Of a DNA stretch of 64,000 bases, positions 3,538 through 43,896 are shown piece after piece. The position numbers were made by a program, and so were the translations under genes. Position 1 is the first letter of the stretch, and the number at the start of each line of letters is the position of its first letter. The notes beneath the pieces are model-generated. The model was not told the origin of the DNA. It searched no databases and saw only the letters and a program-made list of their open reading frames with translations. Location of the stretch: assembly GCA_000091205.1 (NCBI GenBank), contig AP006493.2, one strand, 5' to 3'. This DNA comes from Cyanidioschyzon merolae (lineage: Eukaryota).

Positions 3538-6047
3538 AAAAATGCCCGTAAGGCACGTGCATTGCTCTGAAGGGCTCTGCTTATGAAAATCTAGCTACAC
3601 GAGATTCAAGAAAGCCGGGAATCACACTCAAAGAATCCTTTGGATACGACTTGGGTGGTCGTGGCGCTCTAAGCGACACGATGAGGCTGGGCGGTCTGCA
3701 GCGACTCCTGACCTCGCAGCAGCATCTCCTCCGAACTCGAACCAGATTCGATCGCTTCCGTCACCAGCTCGTCGTTTGCCTCTATCGAAACCGCAGGAAA
3801 TCCTTCCACCAGTCACCGTGTCTCGGGTCCAGTGTTTTGAGGGTATAACGCTCTTGGCGTGCGCCTCATAAAACGCTCCACAAGGACAGACACATGCGTT
3901 TGGTCATTGAGACTGGTTTCATTCTTAATTGCATATGGACCGCAGATTTCCTTCGATCCCGGATGGAGTGCGGCGATGCGTCAGGGTATTCGAGGAGGCG
4001 AATGTTGAAACCTCGTTTCCGATGATCAGGCTTTAGTGCTTCCTTTGCTCTCGCGTTAGGTGTCACGCGAAGGTATGATCGAGGAATACGGAAGGAACAT
4101 GGACAGCGGGCAGCCTTGCGTACATAGCTCGTACAAAGCGTTGGTTGACGAAGTGCGTCAACACAATCGAAGCTCAGCGAGCCTTCCTCGAGTAACAAGC
4201 GACGCGATCCCCAATGGCGACCTGCGTCTCACGTTTTGGAAGATTCCCCCAGTTGATGTATACTGGCAGGGACAGCCCGTTGACGGATTCAGAAGGATTT
4301 CTCAGCCTCGGCAATGCTTCCATCCTACAGGACCTGGTCCACCTGCCGGGAGGATCCTTTACTGATTCATCAGGTGGTTGCCTCTCCTCTTCGTTTACTT
4401 GCCTGGGCAGCATTCAAATGTTCGCGGCACTCTATATCAGGTTTTGCTGTGGATGCAGACACACTCCATGGAAGGTGAGGCTGAAACGCGCTCACTGTCT
4501 GTACGGATCCCCGATTCCTATAACGCAGCTGTTCGTCACTTCAAAGTCGCGTGCGTGCCGACGGACCAAAGCGCATTTCTCAGCGCTCTCGACCCGAGAC
4601 GCAGTAGTGCGGTGCAGAGCTGATGAAAGTAGAGAACGACTCGACGAGCAACTGTTTCATGGATGCGAGCGACTCGCCTAGAAATCTGTGAGCGTGAAAA
4701 TGGCGTTTGCCAATACAAAAGACGCCTTGGAATGGATGGAACTGTGGCGGATAGGCTCGAACGAAGAGCAGCTCAACGTCGCTGGAAGCCGTTTACATTT
4801 TCGCGGCTTTTGAGTGAATTTATAATAAACCAGGACAGGAGAATGCGTCAACGATCGATGAGCTGTTGAAAGACGCCGTCCGCTTGGCGAGTTGTTGGCG
4901 ACAACGTGACAGCATCGCTGCTAGAGCCATCGCTGCTAGAGCTGACGTTCACAGCATGCTCGCGTATCGCGTTTTACGATCAGTGTTTTGTCCCTCTTTG
5001 AATGCCCATAGGCAGGCCTGTCACTTCCCCTGAATCATGGTTCGTCGAATGTGACAAACCCGTGTTCATCGTGTAATTAGCGTTCAGATAAAAGCACGAA
5101 ACCCGTTTGGAGAGGTTCAGCGAGCGTCCGTCAACCATTGATGCCGGTGTTTTTCTTCATCCATCCAATGCCCTTCATCACCGTTCGTATCAACAGTACG
5201 GAAAATAAAACTTTTGTGGCTTTTTTCATTCCATTTCGTAGAGAACGTCTAGAATGGGAATGGAATGCCGAAGAAACATTTGTCCAGCTAAACTTGGCGA
5301 GGTTCTCTTTTGTTGCATGACGTTCACCATAAAATCTCCGAGGAGGGTGCTCCATCCACCTGCTGACCGCAGAATGACTGACTTGGATTATGAAGCTAGT
5401 TGTTTCATCAGGTACTGGAGGTGTTTTTACGTCTTTTCGCGAAGTTTCTTCAATCTCCCGGACACAATCCTTCAATGGAGTACTGGTGATGAAAACGTTC
5501 GCGCCGGAAAAAGTATTCCAGAATTCACTGTTATGAGTCTAGAGCCCCGGGCCTGCTATGTTGCATACGGCAAACGCTGTATCTTACGGGCGCTCGTAGT
5601 CGAGAGAACGTTCTTTGCGCTGTGGCAAACCATCGTATACGGCATCTTGTCTATGCAGTCTCTGTGGGTATATGTTCCAGACTCGAAAAGACGTGCCCGC
5701 ATAGCTTTTGCATCTATTGCTCCTTAATTCGGAGGGGGACGCTCCCACGCTGTATCCAATGCAGGTTCATTCTAGGCGTTTTATCGTGTCACGAGTCGGG
5801 GTACCAATGCAACTCCAGAGTCACGGTGTCGCGTTACACCCGGGTCATTCTTAAATCCAACAGGTCCTCTAATGATGGCGTATGCAGCTCGTTTCTGGGC
5901 CTCGCCGCATTGTCATCAACACCAGCTCCTTAGAGCTTTCCCTTAACTGCTCCCATTTTCTCTCTGTTAACTGCGGTTTTCCATCCGCCAGTCCGTCCGC
6001 CCTCTTCAGTTCCGTTACCAACAGCCGAAGAATGTTGATGGCAGCAC

Positions 6048-6684
6048 TCAAGTCCGGATTTCGCTGATTCCGGCTAGAGTCGATTCAGTGGATGCACACC
6101 GTTGCGATCTACGCTTCGCTTGCATGTTCATCTGGTTTGTACGCAGCGTCGATGAACGGCCTTCGCAGCAGCGACACTCGATTGCGGTCAGGTGTCCCCA
6201 TGAGTCCATTATATATCCTTTTCCCATGGCTGCACTGCAACGCATGAGCGCATGCTTCATAGATCGATGCATGTCCTTGACGGCTACAGAGCGCTGGTCT
6301 TGATGCGCTCCTCCGTTTCCGCGCCCTGTGCCGTACCCTACGATCACGAGCTTGCAGCGGGCAAGGCCCTGGTCGAATACTCTGTCCGCTGCAAGTGCAA
6401 GCACAATCTTCTCGATTTCGATTGAGGATTTCCGCGACGCAATCTTGCTCGTGATGAACTGAGTAGCGGAAGGAAAATCCGGGCTGAAGAACAAGTCCAG
6501 CCAATGTCGACACGTCTACATTCCCTTCGTCAGAGGCATTGACAAAGTCTCCAATGCAAGCGACCGCTCCGATGAATACAGACTGGGTCCAAGACCCTTT
6601 TGCGTGAAACAGGAGTGACGGGAACCTATGGGAGCATTCCCGAAAACAGTAACATGCTGCTGATGTCGAATGCCTTGTCATCAA
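6048..6684 (-). pseudogene. Possible disrupted gene. Two overlapping minus-strand ORFs in different frames, one with a G-x-G-x-G-N-G-G motif faintly like YjeF-N/NAXE.
   Basis: The ORFs 6109..6684 and 6048..6494 lie in different frames. The motif KLVIVGYGTGRGNGGAH is weakly reminiscent of the YjeF_N GPGNNGGDG loop. No other support. Confidence 0.15.
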
Positions 6685-7559
6685 AGGCCACCAGGAGAGG
6701 CGGATTTTTCTTCCGCACAGAGTCGATTACTTGAAGTTACAAAGTCAGTGAACTTTCCGCTTGGGCTTGCGAACAAGTCATCACAAGCCGACGTCAAGAA
6801 ATGTGACTCGTCTACCTAGCGGCACGAAATGCTCCATTCACGAGTTACGTTGAAACGGAAAGATGCAGAAAGGTAAGAACGCTCGATCTGAACACACTTC
6901 AAATAAGCAAAGAAGAAGCTTGCGAGCACTTCAGTGTTCCATTTTAAGCTGACAATACATCTAGCACCCAGAACGTCACTGAGTCCGATCTCCAACCATA
7001 AGTCGCGGTCCGAAAAGCGATGCTGAACGAGGAGCTTGTACGCTGTACGGGGATTCACGCAGCGCGAATGCTTCACGCTCGGGGTTCGGTCCCCGATCCA
7101 GTTGGTTTCAAGGCTCCATCAGCATCCCGTTTCATTCACCGTTCATCATCTAGTGTACGGACGGGCACCCGCATTGCGTCAGCTGCTCACGAGACACCAG
7201 CAACTTCACCATCGCTATCGATAGGCGCAGCGCCCCCGGTGCTGCCTCATGCATCTGAGCGCTGATCCCATCGAGCGTACGGATCCAAAGCTCATGGAAC
7301 GTCGTCACATTCGGAAAAGTGCCACGACCTCCTTCCCTGATGCCGATACCCATTGCGAACCCGACAGGCCCCATTCCATGCATCAATAGAGAAAAACGTT
7401 CTTCGATCAACGAAACATCAACAGTTTACCGTGATCCCGGATTCGAGGCACCAGCGTTGACGCGCTGGCGGGCGCAACGTCGATGCAGTCGCCGTCGCAG
7501 GTGTGCATCGTTACGAAGCGCCTCCTACGGCGACGTCCTGACTGACCCTGCGACCTCAT

Positions 7560-17921: not shown

Positions 17922-19349
17922 TTATTCGAAAAATGCTAGCGGACTGGAGCCGTTCTGGGTCTCCTTAGCCAAAGCAGCCGAGTACTCGTAGATAATAGTG
18001 ACGGCCAAAAGGATACCGGTACCGCTGCCGATGGCACCGGTTAGGTCCGCCACCACTGTGAGTAAGCCAACTAGAACACCGCCAAACGCAGCCGCAACTG
18101 GAATATAGCGGTTCAGTTCCTTCACGAGCGAGGTGTCACGGTGCCCTTTGATGGTCAACTCTTGATCGCGCAGCTGCTTTGCAACGTCGCGAGCGCTCTT
18201 GCCCGATACCTCGATATAGAGATACGACATGATCGCACACGAGACCAGCATGAAAACAACGTAGCATAGCGCACGAACCGGATCCACCAGCATATCTCCC
18301 AGGTTGCGCGGCTTGCTGATGTAGTACGCGAGGCCACCAATTGGCACAAACTGGCCGGTATCGCGATACTGTGCCCATTTCCCAAATACCTGCACAATGA
18401 ACATGTTAGGGTATCGCTTCCAAAGAATTTGCGAGAAGAAGTACAGGTTCGTTACCAGCGTCGACTGCAAAATGATTGGCGTATTGCTTGTGTAGAAAAG
18501 CTGGATGGGGTACGACGAGACGTGTCCGCGAACTTTCACCGACTTGATAGGTAAATCGATCCGCAGTCCCTGCAGGTAGATAACAACCATGAACACCACC
18601 ACCGTCGCCAGTAGGTTGCTGAGGTTCGGTAGCTCCTGGCGATAGAACGCCTCGTAGAGTGCGCGGGTCTTGTCCGTGCGCGTCAGCAGCAAATGAAAGA
18701 GGGCGATGATAGCGCCCTCGAACTCCAAACCACGACCGATGTTGATCGTCATCGGCGAGAACGCAGACCACACAATCGTCTCCGCTATATTCGTTGCGAT
18801 GAAGAGACTAATTCCCGAGCCCAGCCCATACCCTTTCTGCAAGAGTTCGTCCAAAAGCATCACGACAACGCTAGCGCAGAAGAGCTGCCCAATGAGAAGC
18901 GCTGCCCGCACGTGGCCCAGCGAAGATACCGGACCATACATTCCCGAGTATACATAGACGATCGCTTCAAAGAGTGCGAAACATATTCCAACCAGCTTCT
19001 GAGCAGCTTCAAAGAGCATACGATCGAGCTTGTTCGAGTAGTCTACCTCGATGATACGCGCGCCCGCTAGCAGTTGTATGATCATGCCCGAAGTCACGAT
19101 CGGCGAAAAACCGAGCTCCATAATGGTGCCTCTCGAACTCGCACCCAATACCAAACGCATCAAGTAAAACGGATCAGAGCCCCCAGTGTTCAAAAAGCCG
19201 TACAGAGGTATCTGGCAGGCGATCAGGTAAACGGCGAGTGCCACGAGACTCCATATGAGCCGCTCCTTGATAGGCACCCGTCGCGCTGGTGTTTGTACTT
19301 CCGGTAAATACGGAAGAAAAGGGCGAACCAAGTCCAAAACTCTGGTCAT
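17922..19349 (-). CDS. SEC61A: Protein transport protein Sec61 alpha subunit (ER translocon).
   Basis: The translation is collinear with Sec61alpha along its whole length ([37 protein letters not shown]...[26 protein letters not shown]). It is 475 aa in a single exon. Confidence 0.92.
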
Positions 19350-19615: not shown

Positions 19616-19665
19616 GCGCCGCCACCGCCGCCGCCACCGCCGCCGCCGCCGCCGCCGCCGAAACG
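19616..19665. repeat. (GCC)n / (CCG)n trinucleotide microsatellite of about 16 units.
   Basis: The sequence reads cgccgccaccgccgccgccaccgccgccgccgccgccgccg. It lies about 270 bp upstream of the Sec61 start codon, on the opposite strand. Confidence 0.9.
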
Positions 19666-23950: not shown

Positions 23951-24556
23951 ATGCGTGGCTATGTTCACTGCATAGCACGGCACTGTGCAAGCAAATTTGC
24001 TCTACCACAAGCGACATTCGTGCACGTCTATTCTGAATACATCCGCCGATAATTTACGAGACTGACTGCGCTGGTCGTTGTCTTGGGCGCACGCGCTCCA
24101 TAGTCGTAGACTCTAACGGAACGGCATGCTCTGGCATCCGCACGATGTTCGAAGGCGCGAACGTTCAGGTGACGCGACGTTGTTTCATGGGCGTGTCTCT
24201 GGGATAGCCATGGATCGCTTCATATAGCATGACAAGTCGTTGTGTGCTGCTGCCGCGGTGCGACGGGAGAGCAGCCCCATGCAGCGCACGGCAGAGCGAA
24301 CTTCGCATGCGACTCCCCGCCGGGTCATCGGCAGCGCTGGCGCATCCAGAGGTATCTGTTGATATTCCTGGATTTTACAGGAGTAAGCGATTGACGAAAT
24401 AGAGTCTCTTCGCTGATCAATGGAAACGCTCGCGCATCCATGGGCATCTGGTCTGCTTCATCGATTCTTCATTATAGGCATGTCAGACAAGAATGGAACG
24501 GGCAGCTTTGCTGACTCGGGCGAAGAACGTAAAGTAACGGTCTCTTCCGATCGTGA

Positions 24557-25838
24557 TGAATATAGGCCTTTTGTGGGATTTCTCTGCGACGGATAACCTG
24601 TCCGTACGCTAAACCTCCAGCATAAAATATGCGAATATCTGTTCTGCCTTCATCTCCATCTTCGCAAGCAGATGAATACTGATGGCAGCGTTCGTGTCCC
24701 GATTGCGCCGCTTCCCGCCTTTGTCGACGCTATTCATGCAGAGGCGCAAGTTGCGATCCGAGCTTCGCTTGCAATTTTCACTGTCTTTCTGTGCAGCCTC
24801 CAGACGCACTTCGCAGCGTTCATACACGAATGCAGACAGATGTGCCAGCGAGTGTCCACAGCAGCTCCTCGTCTGGCGGTCGGTCTTCCTTGGATGACCG
24901 TTTGAATCATCGCTCGGTACCAGCCATTGGCGGTTGCAGGAGGCATCCTGCGATACGCTGCTCCAAATCCGTGTCCGGTGCGGTGCACGACCAGTGAGGG
25001 TTGCTTCCGACTGGTCTAACCCCGATAAGCACACCGCTCCATTCCACAGAGGATATATGGAACGCCTCGTGCTCCACGGGGAAACGTGCAGCTGGAGCGA
25101 AATCTACGACGGAGAACACTTGGAGAGATTTCGCTTCGCCTCACTCATTCTTGTACAAACCGGTGATGCAGTTTTCACTCGAAGGAATCTCTGCGATGAC
25201 TGAAGACAGAGCCCAGCACTCTTGTCCATGCGAATACAAGCGACGGGAGCCTCTGCGAGCTAATGACGTGAGAGCTACGAGTGTACTGTCGAATTACGAA
25301 CCCTCGTCGACGGCTGCAAAGCCTGGAGCATACGTCGTTCGAGCGGAATCGAGCATCGGACGTGAAGAGTTCAGTGTGGCTTCCGCACACGCTCGGGAAC
25401 AAATCGTCAACGCGCGACATCGCGTACGTTACCTCAGCAGTCCAGCAGCGCGAATAGCTGCGCCCCAGTCCACTCTTGCATCCGAAAAATCGAACACATG
25501 AACCGTGCGCGATGTGCGGACACCTCGCCAACGGAAAGCAGAAGCGTCGAGGCTCGTACCTCTGAGTCACGTAATGATCTCACTTGTTGTACGAACCGTT
25601 GTTTGAGTGCGTCTCGTACGCCTTTGATTCCGATACCGTTGCGAGTTCCAGCGCCGATGCGTCGAAAGAGCCACGCTGATCAAGAGACACCCGAGAATCC
25701 CAAAACGAATCATGAAACCGGAATCCATGAATCCCGCACACGCAACGTCGAATCTATACACCTATGAAAATGGTTCGGAAAATACATCGAAGTCGAGGAA
25801 GAATGGAAGCGGTTCAGTGTTCCATGTTGATTCAACAC
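24557..25838. repeat. Dispersed ~1.28-kb repeat, copy 1. It is ~98-99% identical to the copy at 39386..40667, in direct orientation.
   Basis: The two copies sit at a constant offset of 14,829 bp with no indels. The ORFs 24672..24905, 25001..25501 and 25498..25767 are near-identical to 39501..39734, 39830..40330 and 40327..40596. The flanks diverge. Confidence 0.9.
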
Positions 25839-35549: not shown

Positions 35550-38294
35550 ATGTCCCGTCTGGTCACAGGTAGTTCTCGCTCGTTGCGCACGCTTTCGAAG
35601 AGGAGCGGTACGTTCGCTTCACGCTCGACTCGGTTGACGTCAACCAACACGACCCGATCGCTTGTGCTTGCTGGAGTGCTCATCCAGGACAAGGGAAGGC
35701 GTGTCGGTGTGGCTGCATGCTTCGTCGATGCCTGTCGGGTCGAGCTGCGTCAGTTCACCGACAACTACGCATACGACCGCCTGGCTGTGGGCCTGGAGGT
35801 GCTGGACCCGTCAGAACTGGTGGTGCCTGATGGAATAGCGCTTTCCATTCTGGCGCCGATACTCCAGCGTGATCAAGGGGTCGCGACTACCAGCATATCG
35901 GGCGACGGCAGCGGTACAGTGCATGCGGACTCTCGTCGCGCTGTGCCGATCCCTCGACGATTATTCAACGAGCAAATCGGTCTGGAACTTATGGAACGAT
36001 TCGCCGTGGACGCAGCCGCGATACGTCTAAGCGCGTCACAGCCCGAGCGTGACCTCGCAACGGCAGCATGTGCCGCAGTGTTGCAGTATCTCGAGCACCG
36101 CGGAGAGTTGAGTTTTCGACCAAGGGCCGTTCAATTCGTGTTCACGAATTGTGAGGACGCGCTTTTCATGGACTCATGCACCGTGCATTGCTTGGAACTG
36201 GTGGAGCGCGGCGACTCGGAAAGCGGCACCGACGCAGACATATCTCTACAGCGTACGCTGCGTTTCACGCAGACCGCCGAGGGCGCGCGCGCCCTGCGAC
36301 GCGCGATCCTCGAACCACCCGCGAATCGGACCGTCATCGAGGAGCGCCTGGATGCCCTAGATTTCATGCTCAGCAATGATGCGATTTACTACGAGCTTAA
36401 AGAGGCGCTTCGACAGACGCCCTCGGTCGAAAGAACGATCGCGCAGATTTTCCATATCTATCCGCGAGCACGGGAATCGTTGGGCATGCAGGCGCAGTCC
36501 CATATTCGGGATGCGCGCGTTCATGGGGCGCAATCCATCGACCATGTCGTCGACTTCCGCTTTGTGCGTAGCGTCTGGCAACTGAGACGGGCACTCGACA
36601 GCCTCTTTCGCATACGCGAAGCGCTCGATGTGTTCCTGGAAGAGCGCTCGACCCAGACCGGTACAAGGACCTTACCAGTACTTCTGGAATGGTGCCGGAA
36701 CGTTGCCCGTCTCACTGCACTGACCGATTTGCACCATGAGCTGGGGCGCTGTCTCGCCTCTACGACAGAAGTAGAGCTCGAGCTCGGTTCAACCGAGCGA
36801 AATCGCTTGCATATTGCTTTTGCCCTGCGCGCTGGCGCCAATCCATTGCTCGACGCTGCGCGTCGTGCGCTGTCCGACACCGTATCGAGCGTACATCACC
36901 TCGCTGAGGCCACCAAGGGTCAGTTGCGATGCCCTCGTCTGCATGTCGCGTACAGCACGCTGCGCGGATACCACTTTGTTTTGCCTTTGCGAGACGCTGT
37001 GCAGCAATCGCTTACTCGCACGGAGATCGGCGGCGTTCTCTTACGGTATCCGGTACGTTCAGGAAAAAAACTCCTGTTCACAACCGATGCGCTGATTCGT
37101 TTGAACATGCAGTACCAGGAGACGCTGGCAGAAATCTGGCATTTGAGCAGCAAAGAACTTTCCAAGCTGGCGGAAATGGCAACGAGCACCGCTTCAGCGC
37201 ACGCGATCCACGAGTTTTGTGATTGCGTGGCTGCACTGGACGTCACCCTCGCGCTGGCGACATGTATTCGACGAGCGCGCGACCGCAGTTCGTGTCCGTG
37301 GGTGCGACCACAATTCCCCGACACCAATGTCATGGCCATGAAGGATGGACGCCATTTGCTCCTGTCCCATCTGTACGAGGCACAGCGGCGCGATCCACCA
37401 AGACCGAACGATGTCTATATAGATGACGCTCATAACGTGATGCTTCTCTTCGGTGCAAACGCGTCGGGCAAGTCCGTGTACATGAGACAGACAGCGCTCA
37501 TTGTGGTGCTCGCCCAGATGGGGTGCTTCGTACCAGCTGCTTTCGCCTCCATGCCTGTCTACAGCGTGCTTCTGGTGCGGAGTCGCTCTGATGACGCTCT
37601 GGAACATAATCTCTCCTCGTTTGCCATGGAGATGCGGGAAATCACAAGCGCGCTTCACTACATTGACGGAGAGGCGCTCTCCAGCGCATTAAATCCGTTA
37701 GACCAGGAGCGCCGCATTCACAAACTTGTCTTATTCGATGAAGTCGGACGCTCGACCGGCTCGCTTGATGGCAAATCCATCGCCTGGGCGATGCTCGAGT
37801 ACCTTTCTGATACGACCGCACATATCATCTTTGCCACACACTTCAGCGAGCTTGCGCGGACGCAAACGTACCTTCCTAACGTCCATGTGATGCACCTACA
37901 GTCACGAGTGGAGAATGGCACGCTCTATCATGATTACAAGCTTGTAGAGGGTGCGCCAGCGTCTTCTCGTTACGGGGCCGAAGTTGCTGCCCAAGCCGGA
38001 CTCCCCAGCGCTGTGGTCACACGCGCGTTGCAGTTTCGCGGAGTGTTCAGCGGAGATGCCTCCACCTCAACAACGACACCTACAGCAACAGATACTGGAA
38101 ATCAAGGATTCCTGAGTATCGACGACGAAACTTGGGCCCATTGCAGATGGTATACCAAAGCCAACACCCTACTCCAGCGACTTGTCATGCTCTCGTACGT
38201 GGCCACTTCACCTGAAGACCAGTGCGCAGGCGTAGCCGAACTGGCTTCGGTGTTCGCGGACTTGTTCGAGACGCCAACAGCGGTTACTCGCTAG
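35550..38294 (+). CDS. MSH4: MutS homolog, most similar to the meiotic MSH4 subtype. It lacks the N-terminal mismatch-binding domain.
   Basis: The MutS ATPase Walker A region reads LLFGANASGKSVYMRQTALIVVLAQMGCFVPA. Other shared segments are SSFAMEMREI, LFDEVGRSTGSLDGKSIAWAMLEY, IFATHFSELA and YHDYKLVEGAPASSRYGAEVAAQAGLP. These resemble the MSH4 sequences STFMKEMKEI and TLFATHFLEL. The MutS-family call is strong. The MSH4-versus-MSH5 subtype is moderate. Confidence 0.8.
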   Translation: MSRLVTGSSRSLRTLSKRSGTFASRSTRLTSTNTTRSLVLAGVLIQDKGRRVGVAACFVDACRVELRQFTDNYAYDRLAVGLEVLDPSELVVPDGIALSILAPILQRDQGVATTSISGDGSGTVHADSRRAVPIPRRLFNEQIGLELMERFAVDAAAIRLSASQPERDLATAACAAVLQYLEHRGELSFRPRAVQFVFTNCEDALFMDSCTVHCLELVERGDSESGTDADISLQRTLRFTQTAEGARALRRAILEPPANRTVIEERLDALDFMLSNDAIYYELKEALRQTPSVERTIAQIFHIYPRARESLGMQAQSHIRDARVHGAQSIDHVVDFRFVRSVWQLRRALDSLFRIREALDVFLEERSTQTGTRTLPVLLEWCRNVARLTALTDLHHELGRCLASTTEVELELGSTERNRLHIAFALRAGANPLLDAARRALSDTVSSVHHLAEATKGQLRCPRLHVAYSTLRGYHFVLPLRDAVQQSLTRTEIGGVLLRYPVRSGKKLLFTTDALIRLNMQYQETLAEIWHLSSKELSKLAEMATSTASAHAIHEFCDCVAALDVTLALATCIRRARDRSSCPWVRPQFPDTNVMAMKDGRHLLLSHLYEAQRRDPPRPNDVYIDDAHNVMLLFGANASGKSVYMRQTALIVVLAQMGCFVPAAFASMPVYSVLLVRSRSDDALEHNLSSFAMEMREITSALHYIDGEALSSALNPLDQERRIHKLVLFDEVGRSTGSLDGKSIAWAMLEYLSDTTAHIIFATHFSELARTQTYLPNVHVMHLQSRVENGTLYHDYKLVEGAPASSRYGAEVAAQAGLPSAVVTRALQFRGVFSGDASTSTTTPTATDTGNQGFLSIDDETWAHCRWYTKANTLLQRLVMLSYVATSPEDQCAGVAELASVFADLFETPTAVTR

Positions 38295-38695
38295 CGCTCA
38301 CTCCCTTGTTGACTTGCTGTGTGGTGCTTGGCGCTATCACCTTTGTCCTCGAGCGGTAATTCAAAGCTTCGCTTTAACGCTTCCTCTAACGTACGTTGCG
38401 CAGTGTACACTTTGGCCTGTAAGTATAGAGATCCACCGTTCTTTGGATCGTTCAAGGTATAAAGTCGCCTCAGTCGCTCCGCTATGTGCTCTGGTGAGGT
38501 TCCTGGTGTGGCACCTACTATTCGGTACGCCTCCTCGACGGTCATGCGCCCACGTCGTACTGCGTTCGCTGCAGCAGACTGTGCCGCACCCGTGGACTGT
38601 GCGTTTGCAAGCGCTTGTCGGTATGCTTCGGCCAAGCCTCTGAGAAGAAACTGTCCACCATATATAATAAGCTGTGCAACTATTTTCGATGCCAT
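38291..38695 (-). CDS. PAM16: Mitochondrial import inner-membrane translocase subunit TIM16 / PAM16 (Magmas-like, J-like domain).
   Basis: The translation reads MASKIVAQLIIYGGQFLLRGLAEAYRQALANAQSTGAAQ...MTVEEAYRIVGATP...GGSLYLQAKVYTAQRTLEE. It is collinear with PAM16 (MAAKLLAQIIVLGSQVFGRAFAEAYRQA...GSFYLQSKV). Confidence 0.85.
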   Translation of the reverse strand: MASKIVAQLIIYGGQFLLRGLAEAYRQALANAQSTGAAQSAAANAVRRGRMTVEEAYRIVGATPGTSPEHIAERLRRLYTLNDPKNGGSLYLQAKVYTAQRTLEEALKRSFELPLEDKGDSAKHHTASQQGSER

Positions 38696-38850
38696 GCAAG
38701 CGTTTCCGATTCACCTTAGTAGCTGCCCAGCGGAACGCTGTCGCACAGGGCACCTTTGTGACGAACGGATAATGCGTCGGTGTCCAGTGCAGCGTCGGAC
38801 AGGCGCCCATCGAAGCATGCGATGCGTTAGCGTACTGCTCGCCGGCCGGC

Positions 38851-39332
38851 AAGACGTTGTTGTCGGGAGCCGACAACCCGCAGGTCAGCGGAACATCGTT
38901 TAACGGCAATCATGAGGGGATGGAGTGGAGCGGGTTGTTGTCGGGAGCCGACAACCCGCAGGTCAGCGGAACATCGCTTAGCGGCAATCATGAGGGAATG
39001 GAGTGGAGAGACGTTGTTGTCGGGAGCCGACAACCCGCAGGTCAGCGGAACATCGTTTAACGGCAATCATGAGGGGATGGAGTGGAGCGGGTTGTTGTCG
39101 GGAGCCGACAACCCGCAGGTCAGCGGAACATCGCTTAGCGGCAATCATGAGGGAATGGAGTGGAGAGACGTTGTTGTCGGGAGCCGACAACCCGCAGGTC
39201 AGCGGAACATCGTTTAACGGCAATCATGAGGGGATGGAGTGGAGAGACGTTGTTGTCGGGAGCCGACAACCCGCAGGTCAGCGGAACATCGTTTAACGGC
39301 AATCATGAGGGGATGGAGTGGAGCGGGTTGTT
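38851..39332. repeat. Minisatellite of ~6 tandem copies of a 78/79-bp unit. Two unit variants alternate, giving a ~157-bp higher-order repeat. Each unit contains a perfect 8-bp-stem, 3-nt-loop inverted repeat.
   Basis: The unit cgacaacccgcaggtcagcgg recurs at 38871, 38949, 39028, 39106, 39185 and 39264. Each unit contains gttgtcgg-gag-ccgacaac. Variant A reads ...atcgtttaacggcaatcatgaggggatggagtggagcgggttg, and variant B reads ...atcgcttagcggcaatcatgagggaatggagtggagagacgttg. The small ORFs across it on both strands are repeat artefacts. Confidence 0.95.
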
Positions 39333-39385
39333 TTCAGATTAATGAGGTTTACGTTGTATATAGATTGGGCTGCACTCTAACGCTA

Positions 39386-40667
39386 TCAATATAGGCCTTT
39401 TGTGGGATTTCTCTGCGACGGATAACCTGTCCGTACGCTAAACCTCCAGCATAAAATATGCGGATATCTGTTCTGCCTTCATCTCCATCTTCGCAAGCAG
39501 ATGAATACTGATGGCAGCGTTCGTGTCCCGATTGCGCCGCTTCCCGCCTTTGTCGACGCTATTCATGCAGAGGCGCAAGTTGCGATCCGAGCTTCGCTTG
39601 CAATTTTCACTGTCTTTCTATGCAGCCTCCAGACGCACTTCGCAACGTTCATGCACGAATGCAGACAGGTGTGCCAGCGAGTGTCCACAGCAGCTCCTCG
39701 TCTGGCGGTCGCTCTTCCTTGGATGACCGTTTGAATCATCGCTCGGTACCAGCCATTGGCGGTTGCAGGAGGCATCCTGCGATACGCTGCTCCAAATCCG
39801 TGTCCGGTGCGGTGCACGACCAGTGAGGGTTGCTTCCGACTGGTCTAACCCCGATAAGCACACCGCTCCATTCCACAGAGGATATATGGAACGCCTCGTG
39901 CTCCACGGGGAAACGTGCAGCTGGAGCGAAATCTACGACGGAGAACACTTGGAGAGATTTCGCTTCGCCTAACTCATTCTTGCACAAACCGGTGATGCAG
40001 TTTTCACTCGAAGGAATCTCTGCGATGACTGAAGACAGAGCCCAGCACTCTTGTCCATGCGAATACAAGCGACGGGAGCCTCTGCGAGCTAATCACGTGA
40101 GAGCTACGAGTGTACTGTCGAATTACGAACCCTCGTCGACGACTGCAACGCCTGGAGCATACGTCGTTCGAGCGGAATCGAGCATCGGACGTGAAGAGTT
40201 CAGTGTGGCTTCCGCACACGCTCGGGAACAAATCGTCAACGCGCGACATCGCGTACGTTACCTCAGCAGTCCAGCAGCGCGAATAGCTGCGCCCCAGTCC
40301 ACTCTTGCATCCGAAAAATCGAACACATGAACCGTGCGCGATGTGCGGACACCTCGCCAACGGAAAGCAGAAGCGTCGAGGCTCGTACCTCTGAGTCGCG
40401 TAATGATCTCACTTGTTGTACGAACCGTTGTTTGAGCGCGTCGCGTACGCCTTTGATTCCGATACCGTTGCGAGTTCCAGCGCCGATGCGTCGAAAGAGC
40501 CACGCTGATCAAGAGACACCCGAGAATCCCAAAACGAATCATGAAACCGGAATCCATGAATCCCGCACACGCAACGTCGAATCTATACACCTATGAAAAT
40601 GGTTCGGAAAATACATCGAAGTCGAGGAAGAATGGAAGCGGTTCAGTGTTCCATGTTGATTCAACAT
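39386..40667. repeat. Dispersed ~1.28-kb repeat, copy 2. It directly abuts the 3' end of the minisatellite.
   Basis: It is near-identical to 24557..25838, with the same ORFs carrying a few substitutions. It begins about 55 bp after the last minisatellite unit. Confidence 0.9.
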
Positions 40668-42186
40668 GCTCTAGAGACGAGCAATGTTAGCGCGGATGCC
40701 TGCATTGCGACGATGGCAGTTTCGGGTACCAGGTGCGCAGGAGCTAAACATAAGCGTGCTAGTCGGCGTGCGCTCCATGACCAGCGTGCAGGACACGAGC
40801 GCACGTTCACGCTCTAGTGGGTATCGCGTGACGTATGCCTAAAGTCTGAAGGCGCAGCGGGCACCGGGGCCGACGACCTCGTGCGGCACGCCCCATGTAT
40901 CCCGATGGATGCATACGAGAAGCCTTCGGTGCGCTCTGCAATTGGATGCAATAGCGTCCATTGAAACCGCAACTGCACCGAATGGCTACATCTTCGACAC
41001 CTTGTAAGGGTTTTTCGTCCAACGTCCCTGGAGACCGGATCGCATGCCGAGCGACACTTTGCATGGATAGAATACGATGCACGATCCATTGCTGCAAACT
41101 CGAGCAACCTCTTTTCTCGCACAGAGGCGCGTTCGGTCCCATGAATATCCGTTTTTCATTTCTTGAGAAGCATCGGATAGGTTCCCGTGCATGCTTTCAA
41201 CATGAAATCCTGTATTGTTTCTCTGATAATTTCTTCTCCGTCGAGTCTCATGTACTGAAATCCCAGTGTTGGGGAGTTCGTGCGCTTGCACTGCGAAGCA
41301 TGCAGTGACGCCATCGGTGCGTGGGCGTCACTCCGAATTCTTCTGAAAGACCCAAAAGTCTTATGGAGCGAATCATTGGTTCTCAGTGGAATCCTCGGAT
41401 ACCCAATTGCTATCGTTCATGAAAGATACGCGATTCTCCGCGATACCCAGTTGTGACGCCGTTCCGCCACCTCCAGTCAACAGGTTTCAAATCTGCCTAC
41501 AACAGAAGCCTTACCGCTGGCCGTTACAGTCCAGTTCGAACGTCCCAGACCAAACCGTCGCTTCCAAGGAGTACCATCCTCAAACAGTTCCCTATCGATC
41601 CGTAGTGTCCACATCAGCCTGGTGCGCGTACGTTTACGAGCCCTCACAGCCCGACTCGCGAGCACCAGCGCACGTTTGCAGCGAGCGCAGCACCGACCAC
41701 CTCAATAAACCCGAGTGGAGCAACTGCCACCGAGGCAGACTGCGTCGCACTGTTATCAAATATGCTTCAATGAAAAAGTATTCGTGGCCTTAACGTTGAC
41801 AAGTCGCGAAATTGACAGCCTCTGCGACTCCCGAGCACGTACCCGATATGCGCATCGCAGCCGAGCGCCACGCTGTGCCGATGGCAGCACACGCACCGCG
41901 CATCATCGCCGGCAGCGCGGGCACCAGATCGATCCCGCCGCACGGGCCGGTGGACGGTGCCACGCGGTGCATAGGAGATCGTGCAAGCTCGCATTCCACC
42001 TGATTGCAGCGGCGCGTGACACACCATCAGTACGATGGCCATCGCGCGCGACACATGTGTGTCACGTCCCCGTGATGACTGTATCGAGTGGCATCCCCGT
42101 GGGGTTGATGTCGCCGGGCCCTGCAGCCAGTACGTGGCGCACGTTGGATCGGGGTTTGTGGCGACGCGTGCATACGGCACGTCACG

Positions 42187-43896
42187 TTGCGCTGCATCGT
42201 TTCCAATGCGCCCTCGCCGTCGAGAGGCTGGGCGAATGCACCCGCGATGACATGCCTTTGGATTGCGATCTGTCCACTGGCCCGCATCCGATTTGTCGTT
42301 CAACTTGCTTCGTGTCCCGTTACTGAAGTATTTACGGGAAACCGGAACGCGTGGGGCTGCATAGCTCTCTACGATCTTTCAAGAAGTTATTTAGATTTCT
42401 CTGTCCAACCGTCCTGCAAGAAACGACGAGCCGTCGGTCTTGTTTTGCTTGGGGTGGGTTCTACGAACTCTGGCGCTACCCTCGGTGCCTTGGTCCAGCC
42501 TCGAGGCCCGCAAAACCGTTGTCCTTCCCGTAAAAACATATCGTGCGACGCTTTTGTCGCGACTCTGGGAGAACGGCGCGGGTCCGGGCTTTGCCAGACT
42601 GAGACTAACGCCTCGACAGACGCGACGAGCTTGAGAAGCCACGACAAAGTCCACGCTGCTCCTTCAAGAAACTCGGAGGGAAATACGCTTGCTTACTTCA
42701 TGGACAACAGAAATCTGTATTCGAGTGCTCTGGGGACGCGAATTTCGATTGAGAGCAAGGGTTCAGGCACCAACAGAGAACAGCCAGTGATGATCATGGC
42801 TGGAAACCCCCTTCGAGTACATGTCATAGATGATGATAGAATACCAACAGCTTCGATGCCGGGCGGTTTTTCCGCGCACGACGCGCCCCCGGGCCGAGGA
42901 CTCGCGTCGCACTCGACGGAACCACAGGCCTCGAGAAGCGTGTTTGCTGAAGGCAAATCCATCGTCACACCCAGCGAACGATATCGGAACGGGCATCAGG
43001 GGTCACATGTAGCGACTGGTATCCATACGGGTGACACGTTCCGCAGTGCGACGGCTCCACTCAGCAGGGATGGTGCCGGGCTGCCTGCCACCCGACCATC
43101 GTTCCCCATGCAACAGTCGTGGAAGGCCGGACCGCTCCGGCCCGCCGTTGCCGTTCACGATGGAGGAGACGTTTTCGAGTGGACTCAGCCAGATGCCCGA
43201 CAATCAATCAGATCTAATCAGATATCGCCGGTTTCCACCAGTGCGGAGTTGTCACCACCTATGACGAGAGTACCGACGCCGATTCCGCCCCCAGATCATA
43301 TTGAATGGAAACCGCCTTCGATGGCGACGGGCTCGCCGGTGACAACGTCGTCGTCACCTTCAGAACGTGCGCTCGATCGCTCACGGGGGCAACAGCGGGT
43401 TGTGCCGCACTCAGGCTGGGTCTCATTGGAGAGCGCGCTTCGAGCATCAATAGTTCCTGAACATCTACGCCTTCCGCGACTGCTCACCGAACAGCCGGTG
43501 CGAGCGGATGCAACCCGTACCCGATTCCTTGTACGCCTGCGTGTACCGTCAGAACTCGACGCCTTTAAGATCGCATCTATTTGGCGGAAACGGCAGGAAA
43601 CACGGTTCTGCCTCAACTGTGGAGTCAATGACGCGCCGAGCTGGCATCGGATGGAAGACGACGAGCTTGGTCTCATCGAAATCGGGGAAGGCTGGCTCAA
43701 CTCTCCGACGCTTTTGGCTCAAATCGCGGGTAGCCCAGGCAGAAGATTGCAAAGGGCGCAGTGCAATGCCTGCTGGAAATACAGCTCGCGTCACGGCGGT
43801 GAACAGAGACCACCGCGCCTGTGGAAAGGCTCAGAATTGGATCGCCTCCTCGGCCTCAGGGTCATGGAAGCCCAGTTGCGACTGTTTCAGCGTTAA
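42187..43896 (+). CDS. Hypothetical Ser/Pro-rich protein with a C-terminal GATA-like zinc finger that has an unusually long inter-cysteine loop. The true start may be internal.
   Basis: A 569-codon open frame is unlikely by chance even at this GC content. The C-terminus reads CLNCGVNDAPSWHRMEDDELG...(~50 aa)...CNACWKY. Compare the GATA consensus C-x-N-C-x4-T/P-x-W-R...C-N-A-C-G-L-Y, whose loop is 17-20 aa. Confidence 0.45.
   Translation: MRCIVSNAPSPSRGWANAPAMTCLWIAICPLARIRFVVQLASCPVTEVFTGNRNAWGCIALYDLSRSYLDFSVQPSCKKRRAVGLVLLGVGSTNSGATLGALVQPRGPQNRCPSRKNISCDAFVATLGERRGSGLCQTETNASTDATSLRSHDKVHAAPSRNSEGNTLAYFMDNRNLYSSALGTRISIESKGSGTNREQPVMIMAGNPLRVHVIDDDRIPTASMPGGFSAHDAPPGRGLASHSTEPQASRSVFAEGKSIVTPSERYRNGHQGSHVATGIHTGDTFRSATAPLSRDGAGLPATRPSFPMQQSWKAGPLRPAVAVHDGGDVFEWTQPDARQSIRSNQISPVSTSAELSPPMTRVPTPIPPPDHIEWKPPSMATGSPVTTSSSPSERALDRSRGQQRVVPHSGWVSLESALRASIVPEHLRLPRLLTEQPVRADATRTRFLVRLRVPSELDAFKIASIWRKRQETRFCLNCGVNDAPSWHRMEDDELGLIEIGEGWLNSPTLLAQIAGSPGRRLQRAQCNACWKYSSRHGGEQRPPRLWKGSELDRLLGLRVMEAQLRLFQR

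Follow-up and report, generated by a model that had tools for sequence, protein, structure and literature searches.

What is the block of tandem, hairpin-bearing units that lies upstream of TIM16/PAM16 in Cyanidioschyzon merolae 10D, an alga with a famously repeat-poor genome of 16.5 Mb? The first-pass annotation of this locus had put forward that regularly spaced hairpins at a promoter could form a functional array, for instance for protein binding. An alternative explanation is that the units form a minisatellite that arose and expanded at this one place. We analysed the 64,000-nt stretch of C. merolae 10D DNA that contains the locus (hereafter the window), together with metagenome contigs and related species. 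Our results indicate that the array, which lies in the long non-coding spacer upstream of TIM16/PAM16, is probably a minisatellite (VNTR) that is specific to this locus and polymorphic among strains. The features of the locus are given in Table 1.

Table 1. Features of the TIM16/PAM16 locus and of the array upstream of it (positions in the 64-kb window).
Feature	Position	Strand	Description
MSH4	35550-38294	+	914-aa ORF convergent with TIM16; BAM80563.1
TIM16/PAM16 CDS	38291-38695	-	134 aa; Pfam Pam16 (E=2.8e-19); identical to C. merolae 10D BAM80564.1
Unique spacer	38696-38851	-	156 nt, GC 61%, between PAM16 ATG and array
Minisatellite array	38852-39332		AGAC, six head-to-tail units and terminal GTTGTT (from TRF, repeat search and parsing)
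Unit 1	38856-38933		78 nt, type A (TTTAAC / GGGGAT)
Unit 2	38934-39012		79 nt, type B (GCTTAGC / GGGAAT)
Unit 3	39013-39090		78 nt, type A; same sequence as unit 1
Unit 4	39091-39169		79 nt, type B; same sequence as unit 2
Unit 5	39170-39248		79 nt, A-type body with 79-nt (AGAC/GTCT) junction; also in contig L031
Unit 6	39249-39326		78 nt, type A; most PAM16-distant unit
Inverted repeat GTTGTCGG-GAG-CCGACAAC	38859-38877, 38937-38955, 39016-39034, 39094-39112, 39173-39191, 39252-39270		one per unit
GTTGTT (AACAAC on the PAM16-sense strand)	39327-39332		6-nt direct repeat of the first 6 nt of every unit; read directly from the sequence
AT-rich patch	39333-39384		52 nt, TATATA and ATTGG/CCAAT, between array and dispersed repeat
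Dispersed repeat	39385-40666	+	1.28 kb, non-coding, outside the array proper
Unique non-coding DNA	40667 to about 42456		
Probable GATA-type zinc-finger gene	about 42457-43896	+	

In line with the first-pass annotation, both Tandem Repeats Finder and our own parsing recovered six tandem units of 78/79 bp upstream of PAM16, beginning 156 nt from its start codon. The array has a total length of 481 bp, its unit has a GC content of 58%, and it occupies positions -156 to -636 relative to the TIM16 ATG, within a non-coding spacer of 3.76 kb. Over 38852-39323, Tandem Repeats Finder returned a period of 79 with 6.0 copies (93% matches) and a period of 157 with 3.0 copies (98%), with an additional period of 236 over 38856-39332, while a second repeat search gave spacings of 79, 78, 79, 78 and 79. 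Head-to-tail units of this size, within the range of about 10-100 bp, make the array a minisatellite, and the higher identity at the dimer period of 157 than at the monomer period of 79 makes it a higher-order dimeric repeat. The array is far beyond chance: its 19-mer, at up to three mismatches, gave 12 strand-matches in the window versus 0.04 in shuffled sequence. Only short ORFs cross the array. Since the alternating 78/79, the 157 and the 236 periods are not multiples of three, it cannot encode a repeat protein.

Two unit types alternate along the array. Read in the GTTGTTGTCGG register, their order is A(78), B(79), A(78), B(79), an A body with a B-type junction (79), and A(78), which agrees with the A-B alternation and hybrid fifth unit described earlier. 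The four bases AGAC that open the array are the first 4 nt of the proximal flank and recur in the 79-nt junctions. The dimers at 38852-39008 and 39009-39165 are identical at 157 of 157 positions, in support of the earlier suggestion that the array grew through duplication of a 157-bp dimer.

The perfect inverted repeat that had been annotated in each unit is indeed present in all six. The 19-nt element GTTGTCGGGAGCCGACAAC has exactly six copies in the 64-kb window, with a spacing of 78/79/78/79/79, and all of these lie inside the array. Each inverted repeat is followed by a second small hairpin, CCGC-AGGTCA-GCGG. The arms of the first hairpin are 8 bp long around a loop of 3 nt; in B-type heads only, a 3-nt bulge allows the stem to extend to ~12 bp. 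Arms of 8 bp are short for stable cruciform extrusion, and extrusion from these arms would seem improbable. Outside the array, the window contains 8 perfect 8-bp stems with loops of 3-8 nt, compared to 7.2 +/- 3.9 expected. Hairpins of this kind thus occur at chance frequency in the window, and hence the six array hairpins are copies of one unremarkable ancestor. The half-site CCGACAAC is likewise not enriched outside the array (3 observed versus 3.1 expected in the 64-kb window).

Folding of the unit as RNA and as DNA, which the first-pass annotation had proposed, did predict two hairpins per unit, but the z-scores of single units were modest, ranging from -0.5 to -4.0 with strand and chemistry. 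On the PAM16-sense strand the units form two adjacent hairpins each, with RNA z-scores of -2.2 to -2.9, while those of the + strand were not significant. A z-score of -4.3 for the array as a whole was set aside: it counts one hairpin six times, and it is inflated because shuffling removes the repetition. A scan of the whole window against Rfam at the gathering threshold gave no match, and ARAGORN reported no tRNA or tmRNA in the window. With no Rfam match, and with the unit absent from the other species that we compared, the array does not behave as a structured RNA family.

Is the unit confined to this locus? Within the 64-kb window there are no other copies or near-copies of the unit, its 21-mer or its palindrome, and the 19-nt element found no further copy in 64 kb with three mismatches allowed. 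An exact 19-mer scan of JGI metagenome contigs returned the PAM16 locus of two Cyanidioschyzon contigs and two unrelated contigs. The unrelated contigs (L009, 1578-1596; L011, 1750-1768) share the exact 19-nt palindrome and no other likeness to the unit; given the size of the database, these matches can be pure chance. Scans of the 21-mer against 185,579 prokaryotic genomes and of the 19-mer against viral contigs gave zero matches, by which a contaminant or borrowed mobile sequence was ruled out. On the window and the metagenome contigs, the array is therefore locus-specific, and the window and the Cyanidioschyzon-bearing metagenome contigs hold a single 481-bp array instead of a genome-wide satellite. 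The first-pass annotation had named an ordinary satellite, common across the genome and of constant length, as the outcome that would speak against its reading; we found no other locus in the window or the metagenome contigs, and the assembled alleles differ in length. A literature search on tandem repeats and minisatellites of C. merolae found no description of this array.

The array is also missing from related species. In the sister species (GCA_041825655.1 and metagenome contigs L023-L027) PAM16 is 76% identical, and the gene order NifU / GATA-like / spacer / PAM16 / MSH4 / GT2 / Snf7 is conserved between C. merolae, this species and Cyanidium caldarium (L028). Upstream of PAM16 in both, no unit, sub-motif, tandem repeat or 7-bp hairpin pattern was present, and the PAM16 spacers could not be aligned with those of either species by blastn or tblastx. 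The spacer between TIM16 and the GATA-type gene has a length of ~3.76 kb in C. merolae (38696-42456), ~2.15 kb in the sister species (L025, 3847-6000) and ~1 kb in Cyanidium caldarium (L028, 5027-6000). Both the array and the 1.28-kb repeat form part of the extra length in C. merolae.

Within Cyanidioschyzon the locus is polymorphic. Exact look-ups of the TIM16 protein and three near-identical variants in hot-spring-type metagenomes and Logan assemblies yielded 40 contigs of closely related environmental Cyanidioschyzon, in which alleles were parsed between the common flanks TTAATCTGAAAA and TGCCGGCCGG. Besides the allele of 10D, these contigs gave eight alleles: four with one unit, one with two units (L017) and three with three units. 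Including the six-unit 10D allele, nine distinct complete alleles with 1, 2, 3 or 6 units are thus found between identical flanks, where unit counts from short-read assemblies are lower bounds, as identical units can collapse. Differences in the sequence and order of units cannot come from collapse, and therefore the polymorphism in these is independent of that caveat. For instance, the 116,890-bp contig L013 carries a 3-unit allele with three distinct units, including the unit type CACTCCCTCACTATTACC that is missing from 10D, and a widespread 3-unit allele reads A*-B-A towards PAM16 (L001, L014, L041). Thirteen contigs break inside the array, some of them with configurations not seen in 10D, such as B-A-B beside the proximal flank (L032). 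The array is hence polymorphic in copy number and/or unit order, as expected of a VNTR, and the comparison of array length among relatives that had been called for earlier shows that the assembled alleles differ.

Contigs that stop just upstream of PAM16 are not all array breaks. Only these 13 end within the array, and many others run past it and stop 110-140 nt into the neighbouring 1.28-kb dispersed repeat.

The A*-B-A allele is linked to three TIM16 variants (P0001, P0003 and P0004) and, conversely, several array alleles go together with a single variant of the TIM16 protein. This mixing of array alleles and TIM16 variants could reflect recombination in natural populations. Alternatively, it could stem from chimeric consensus contigs assembled from mixed populations. 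A sexual cycle was recently reported for the Cyanidiophyceae (PMC13353863).

Variation is distributed unevenly within the unit. Across the units and alleles of the window and L001-L048, each of the 8 substitution-type variable sites lies within the first 32 of the 75 unit positions that are common to both junction types, while the 43-nt half with both hairpins (GTTGTTGTCGGGAGCCGACAACCCGCAGGTCAGCGGAACATCG) is invariant in every unit of every allele. How unusual this invariance appears depends on the comparison. For the partition itself, which was drawn once the data were known, we obtained an uncorrected P=6e-4. A Poisson model with the rate of the whole unit gave P=0.01, and a comparison with the diversity of the flanks an unremarkable P=0.28. 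Variable sites make up 2-3% of the flanks: the 156-nt spacer has 5 (34 contigs), the 405-nt CDS has 7, and 200 nt of distal flank have 4. At this diversity, a stretch of 43 nt is expected to show no change; it is the excess variation in the 32-nt half that needs explaining.

Part of this variation consists of the exchange GTTAAAC <-> GCTAAGC on the PAM16-sense strand (38899-38907 and equivalents), two compensatory changes in the 9-nt palindrome CG(T/C)TAA(A/G)CG. Alleles L005, L013, L017 and L029 carry the single-step intermediate, GCTAAAC. The pair is compatible with templated correction of a quasi-palindrome, or with chance. Taken together, the invariant 43 nt and the compensatory pair are weakly suggestive of constraint on the hairpin module, or of its homogenisation.

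The immediate surroundings of the array offer two stretches that may bear on transcription. The unique spacer between the array and the ATG probably holds the PAM16 core promoter and 5' UTR. On the distal side, the GC content drops to 41% over 39333-39430, and TATATA and CCAAT lie ~20-40 nt distal to the array (39345-39375), which makes the AT-rich patch a possible candidate promoter element of unassigned orientation. The array holds 12 sense-strand ATGs (two per unit), versus 2 in the 156-nt spacer. A literature search for maps of TSS or 5' UTRs in C. merolae found no usable TSS information.

On the other side of TIM16, MSH4 and TIM16/PAM16 overlap by 4 nt at their stop codons (38291-38294), as a result of which the 3' UTR of each gene must be fully antisense to the coding region of its partner. 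This convergence is retained in the relatives; the two genes abut in the sister species and overlap by ~50 nt in Cyanidium. Beyond the spacer, the ORF at 42187-43896 (+) has no Pfam match at E<=0.001 and contains a C-terminal CxxC-x(n)-CxxC motif, while its Cyanidium orthologue shows a faint GATA match. This ORF probably encodes a transcription factor of the GATA type, with its start codon at an internal ATG near 42457. A centromeric or AT-rich setting of the array was rejected, as the GC content here is 55-58% and the array lies between genes. Apart from the array, the window has one simple repeat of notable size, (CGC)14.7 at 19617-19660 (TRF score 74), just beyond the start of a 475-aa ORF (17922-19349, -).

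The dispersed repeat next to the array is a 1,282-nt segment that is duplicated on the same strand at 24556-25837, 14.8 kb away. The two copies are 98.8% identical, with 15 substitutions, no indels and sharp boundaries. A third, partial and much older copy lies near 6.0-6.9 kb (6023-6198 / 6912-6945; 68% identity over 184 nt). No terminal inverted repeats, LTR-like TG..CA ends or target-site duplication were seen at the 1,282-nt copies, and the repeat may be a segmental duplication, a non-autonomous element or an ncRNA gene family. Two ORFs in this region were rejected as genes: a 77-aa ORF (39501-39734), read as a small divergent gene, differs at three residues from the L013 copy, and all five differences between the in-window copies of a 166-aa ORF change an amino acid. 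Because of these amino acid changes and the lack of a counterpart in the sister species, both ORFs are treated as non-coding.

How might the array have arisen? All alleles are built with just two types of junction. The 78-nt junction, AACAAC|CCGCTCC, is the junction that already exists between the distal flank and the first unit, while the 79-nt junction, AACAACGTCT|CTCC, contains GTCT, the four bases with which the proximal flank begins. In the 1-unit alleles, the single unit is bracketed by the direct repeat AACAAC. We infer that replication slippage or unequal exchange between sister chromatids duplicated a single 78-nt segment between these AACAAC repeats, which would produce the 78-nt junction. 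A second event with a different breakpoint would have taken along 4 nt of the proximal flank, giving rise to the 79-nt junction; this junction is without microhomology, and hence a separate event is needed. Later, in-register slippage or unequal exchange may have brought unit bodies and junctions into new combinations. In the lineage of 10D, it would have duplicated a 157-bp B-A dimer, resulting in A-A'-(B-A)x2 when read towards PAM16. The full-length identity of the two B-A dimers shows that this last step was very recent in 10D. The different combinations of bodies and junctions among alleles fit repeated unequal exchange or slippage and account for the hybrid fifth unit, so that the exchange history suggested earlier is supported in a somewhat wider form. 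The 8-bp hairpin of each unit would in this scheme be inherited from a single ancestral copy, and at most it might aid polymerase stalling and slippage.

The suggestion that the hairpins form a functional array is not supported by these results. The hairpin occurs at chance frequency, assemblies of close relatives with the same TIM16 protein show one unit, and the half-site is not enriched; neither the sister species and Cyanidium, which lack the unit upstream of PAM16, nor Rfam lends the idea any support. We therefore infer that the array is without function. A regulatory role is one alternative. The 43-nt double hairpin might be a binding site or a nucleosome excluder, with copy number or spacing tuning TIM16 transcription among strains. 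The position of the array a few hundred bp from the ATG, its length polymorphism among the assembled alleles, and the confinement of all variable sites to the 32 nt outside the hairpins would fit such a role, as would the shape of the perfect 8+8 palindrome, which is typical of homodimer sites. Moreover, the array adds 80-400 bp, differing by up to about 390 bp, between the TATA/CCAAT patch and the gene. Yet 1-unit alleles occur in assemblies that encode an identical TIM16 protein, 64 kb with roughly two dozen long ORFs show no enrichment of the motif outside the array, neither the sister species nor Cyanidium has it upstream of PAM16, and the invariance of the 43 nt fits neutral flank diversity. 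Furthermore, according to a 2025 paper there is no endogenous C. merolae promoter with mapped TATA, TSS or other elements (PMC12770821) that could anchor the claim. We consider this role unlikely, and its stricter form, in which the 43-nt module is a selected cis-element whose natural copy number of one to six tunes TIM16 transcription, more doubtful still. If true, it would be the first expression variability driven by a promoter VNTR described in a red alga, at an essential mitochondrial import-motor gene. An effect of copy number on TIM16 expression would also provide a first handle on promoter architecture in C. merolae.

Other explanations fare less well. The array might be transcribed, either as part of a long structured TIM16 5' UTR that starts from the patch at 39345-39375 or as a separate ncRNA, with the hairpins acting as RNA. 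The nearby TATATA and CCAAT and the two hairpins predicted for each sense-strand unit are consistent with this explanation. However, under a scanning model translation of an essential import-motor subunit would suffer severely from the 12 sense AUGs, the number of which would vary six-fold among strains. The modest z-scores (not significant on the + strand), the lack of an Rfam match and the lack of conservation outside C. merolae among the species compared point the same way. Hence a 5' UTR role is unlikely, and we regard transcription of the array in either form as very improbable. The start of the 1.28-kb dispersed repeat only 53 nt from the array, and the inverted repeat in the unit, could indicate a piece of a mobile element or a genome-wide satellite, such as a MITE-like hairpin element or the end of the adjacent repeat. 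In contrast, the copy of that repeat at 24556-25837 is sharply bounded with nothing unit-like beside it, and neither the rest of the window, other loci in the metagenome contigs nor the viral and prokaryotic genome collections yielded the unit. There are no terminal inverted repeats or target-site duplications around the array, and the inverted repeat is internal to the units, so that the array does not qualify as derived from a MITE or other transposon. We give this origin very little credence. Finally, tandem repeats are often misassembled, and copy numbers in the metagenome contigs are lower than in 10D, which might raise the suspicion of an artefact in the reference sequence. This is hardly credible, however, as independent assemblies of many samples contain multi-unit arrays with both junction types, among them three distinct units on a 117-kb contig, and 13 contigs break within the array, as expected of a real multi-copy array. 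Moreover, the 10D reference is a finished Sanger/BAC assembly.

A locus-specific minisatellite that varies among strains thus remains the probable reading. An array of this kind is well known, and the locus is unsurprising to a specialist. Its main value is practical, C. merolae being a model alga that is valued for having almost no repeats. The array offers a VNTR marker of a size suited to PCR, which could separate laboratory sublines as well as hot-spring populations of Cyanidioschyzon.

The array resembles classical minisatellites and VNTRs near genes, such as the human INS 5' VNTR and the HRAS1 minisatellite. In both cases, head-to-tail units of tens of bp occupy non-coding DNA at a single locus near the 5' end of a gene, copy number and the order of variants differ between individuals, and interspersed variants record exchange or slippage. 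The unit of C. merolae differs from these in its length (78/79 bp) and its very low copy number (1-6), and many human minisatellites are G-rich in a way that this unit is not. As a tandem repeat of variable length that lies a few hundred bp upstream of a start codon, the array also recalls yeast promoters, where, in work attributed to Vinces and colleagues in 2009, unstable tandem repeats reportedly alter expression. Those repeats, however, are mostly short, AT-rich and nucleosome-excluding, whereas the unit of C. merolae has a GC content of 58%.

In the alternation of two diverged monomers, with dimers (98-100% identity) more alike than monomers (93%), the array is comparable to the higher-order repeats of alpha-satellite DNA. 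It differs from these in comprising just three dimer periods at one euchromatic locus, between genes and at a GC content of 55-58%. Another parallel concerns its origin. In the model attributed to Haber and Louis, minisatellites are said to be born by slippage between short flanking direct repeats. The AACAAC repeats that bracket the one-unit allele match this model, and the 78-nt junction is exactly the product that slippage between them would yield, while the second junction type (79 nt, GTCT|CTCC), which lacks microhomology, departs from it. With its two junction types, the natural series from one to two, three and six units illustrates both the birth of a minisatellite and its growth by dimers.
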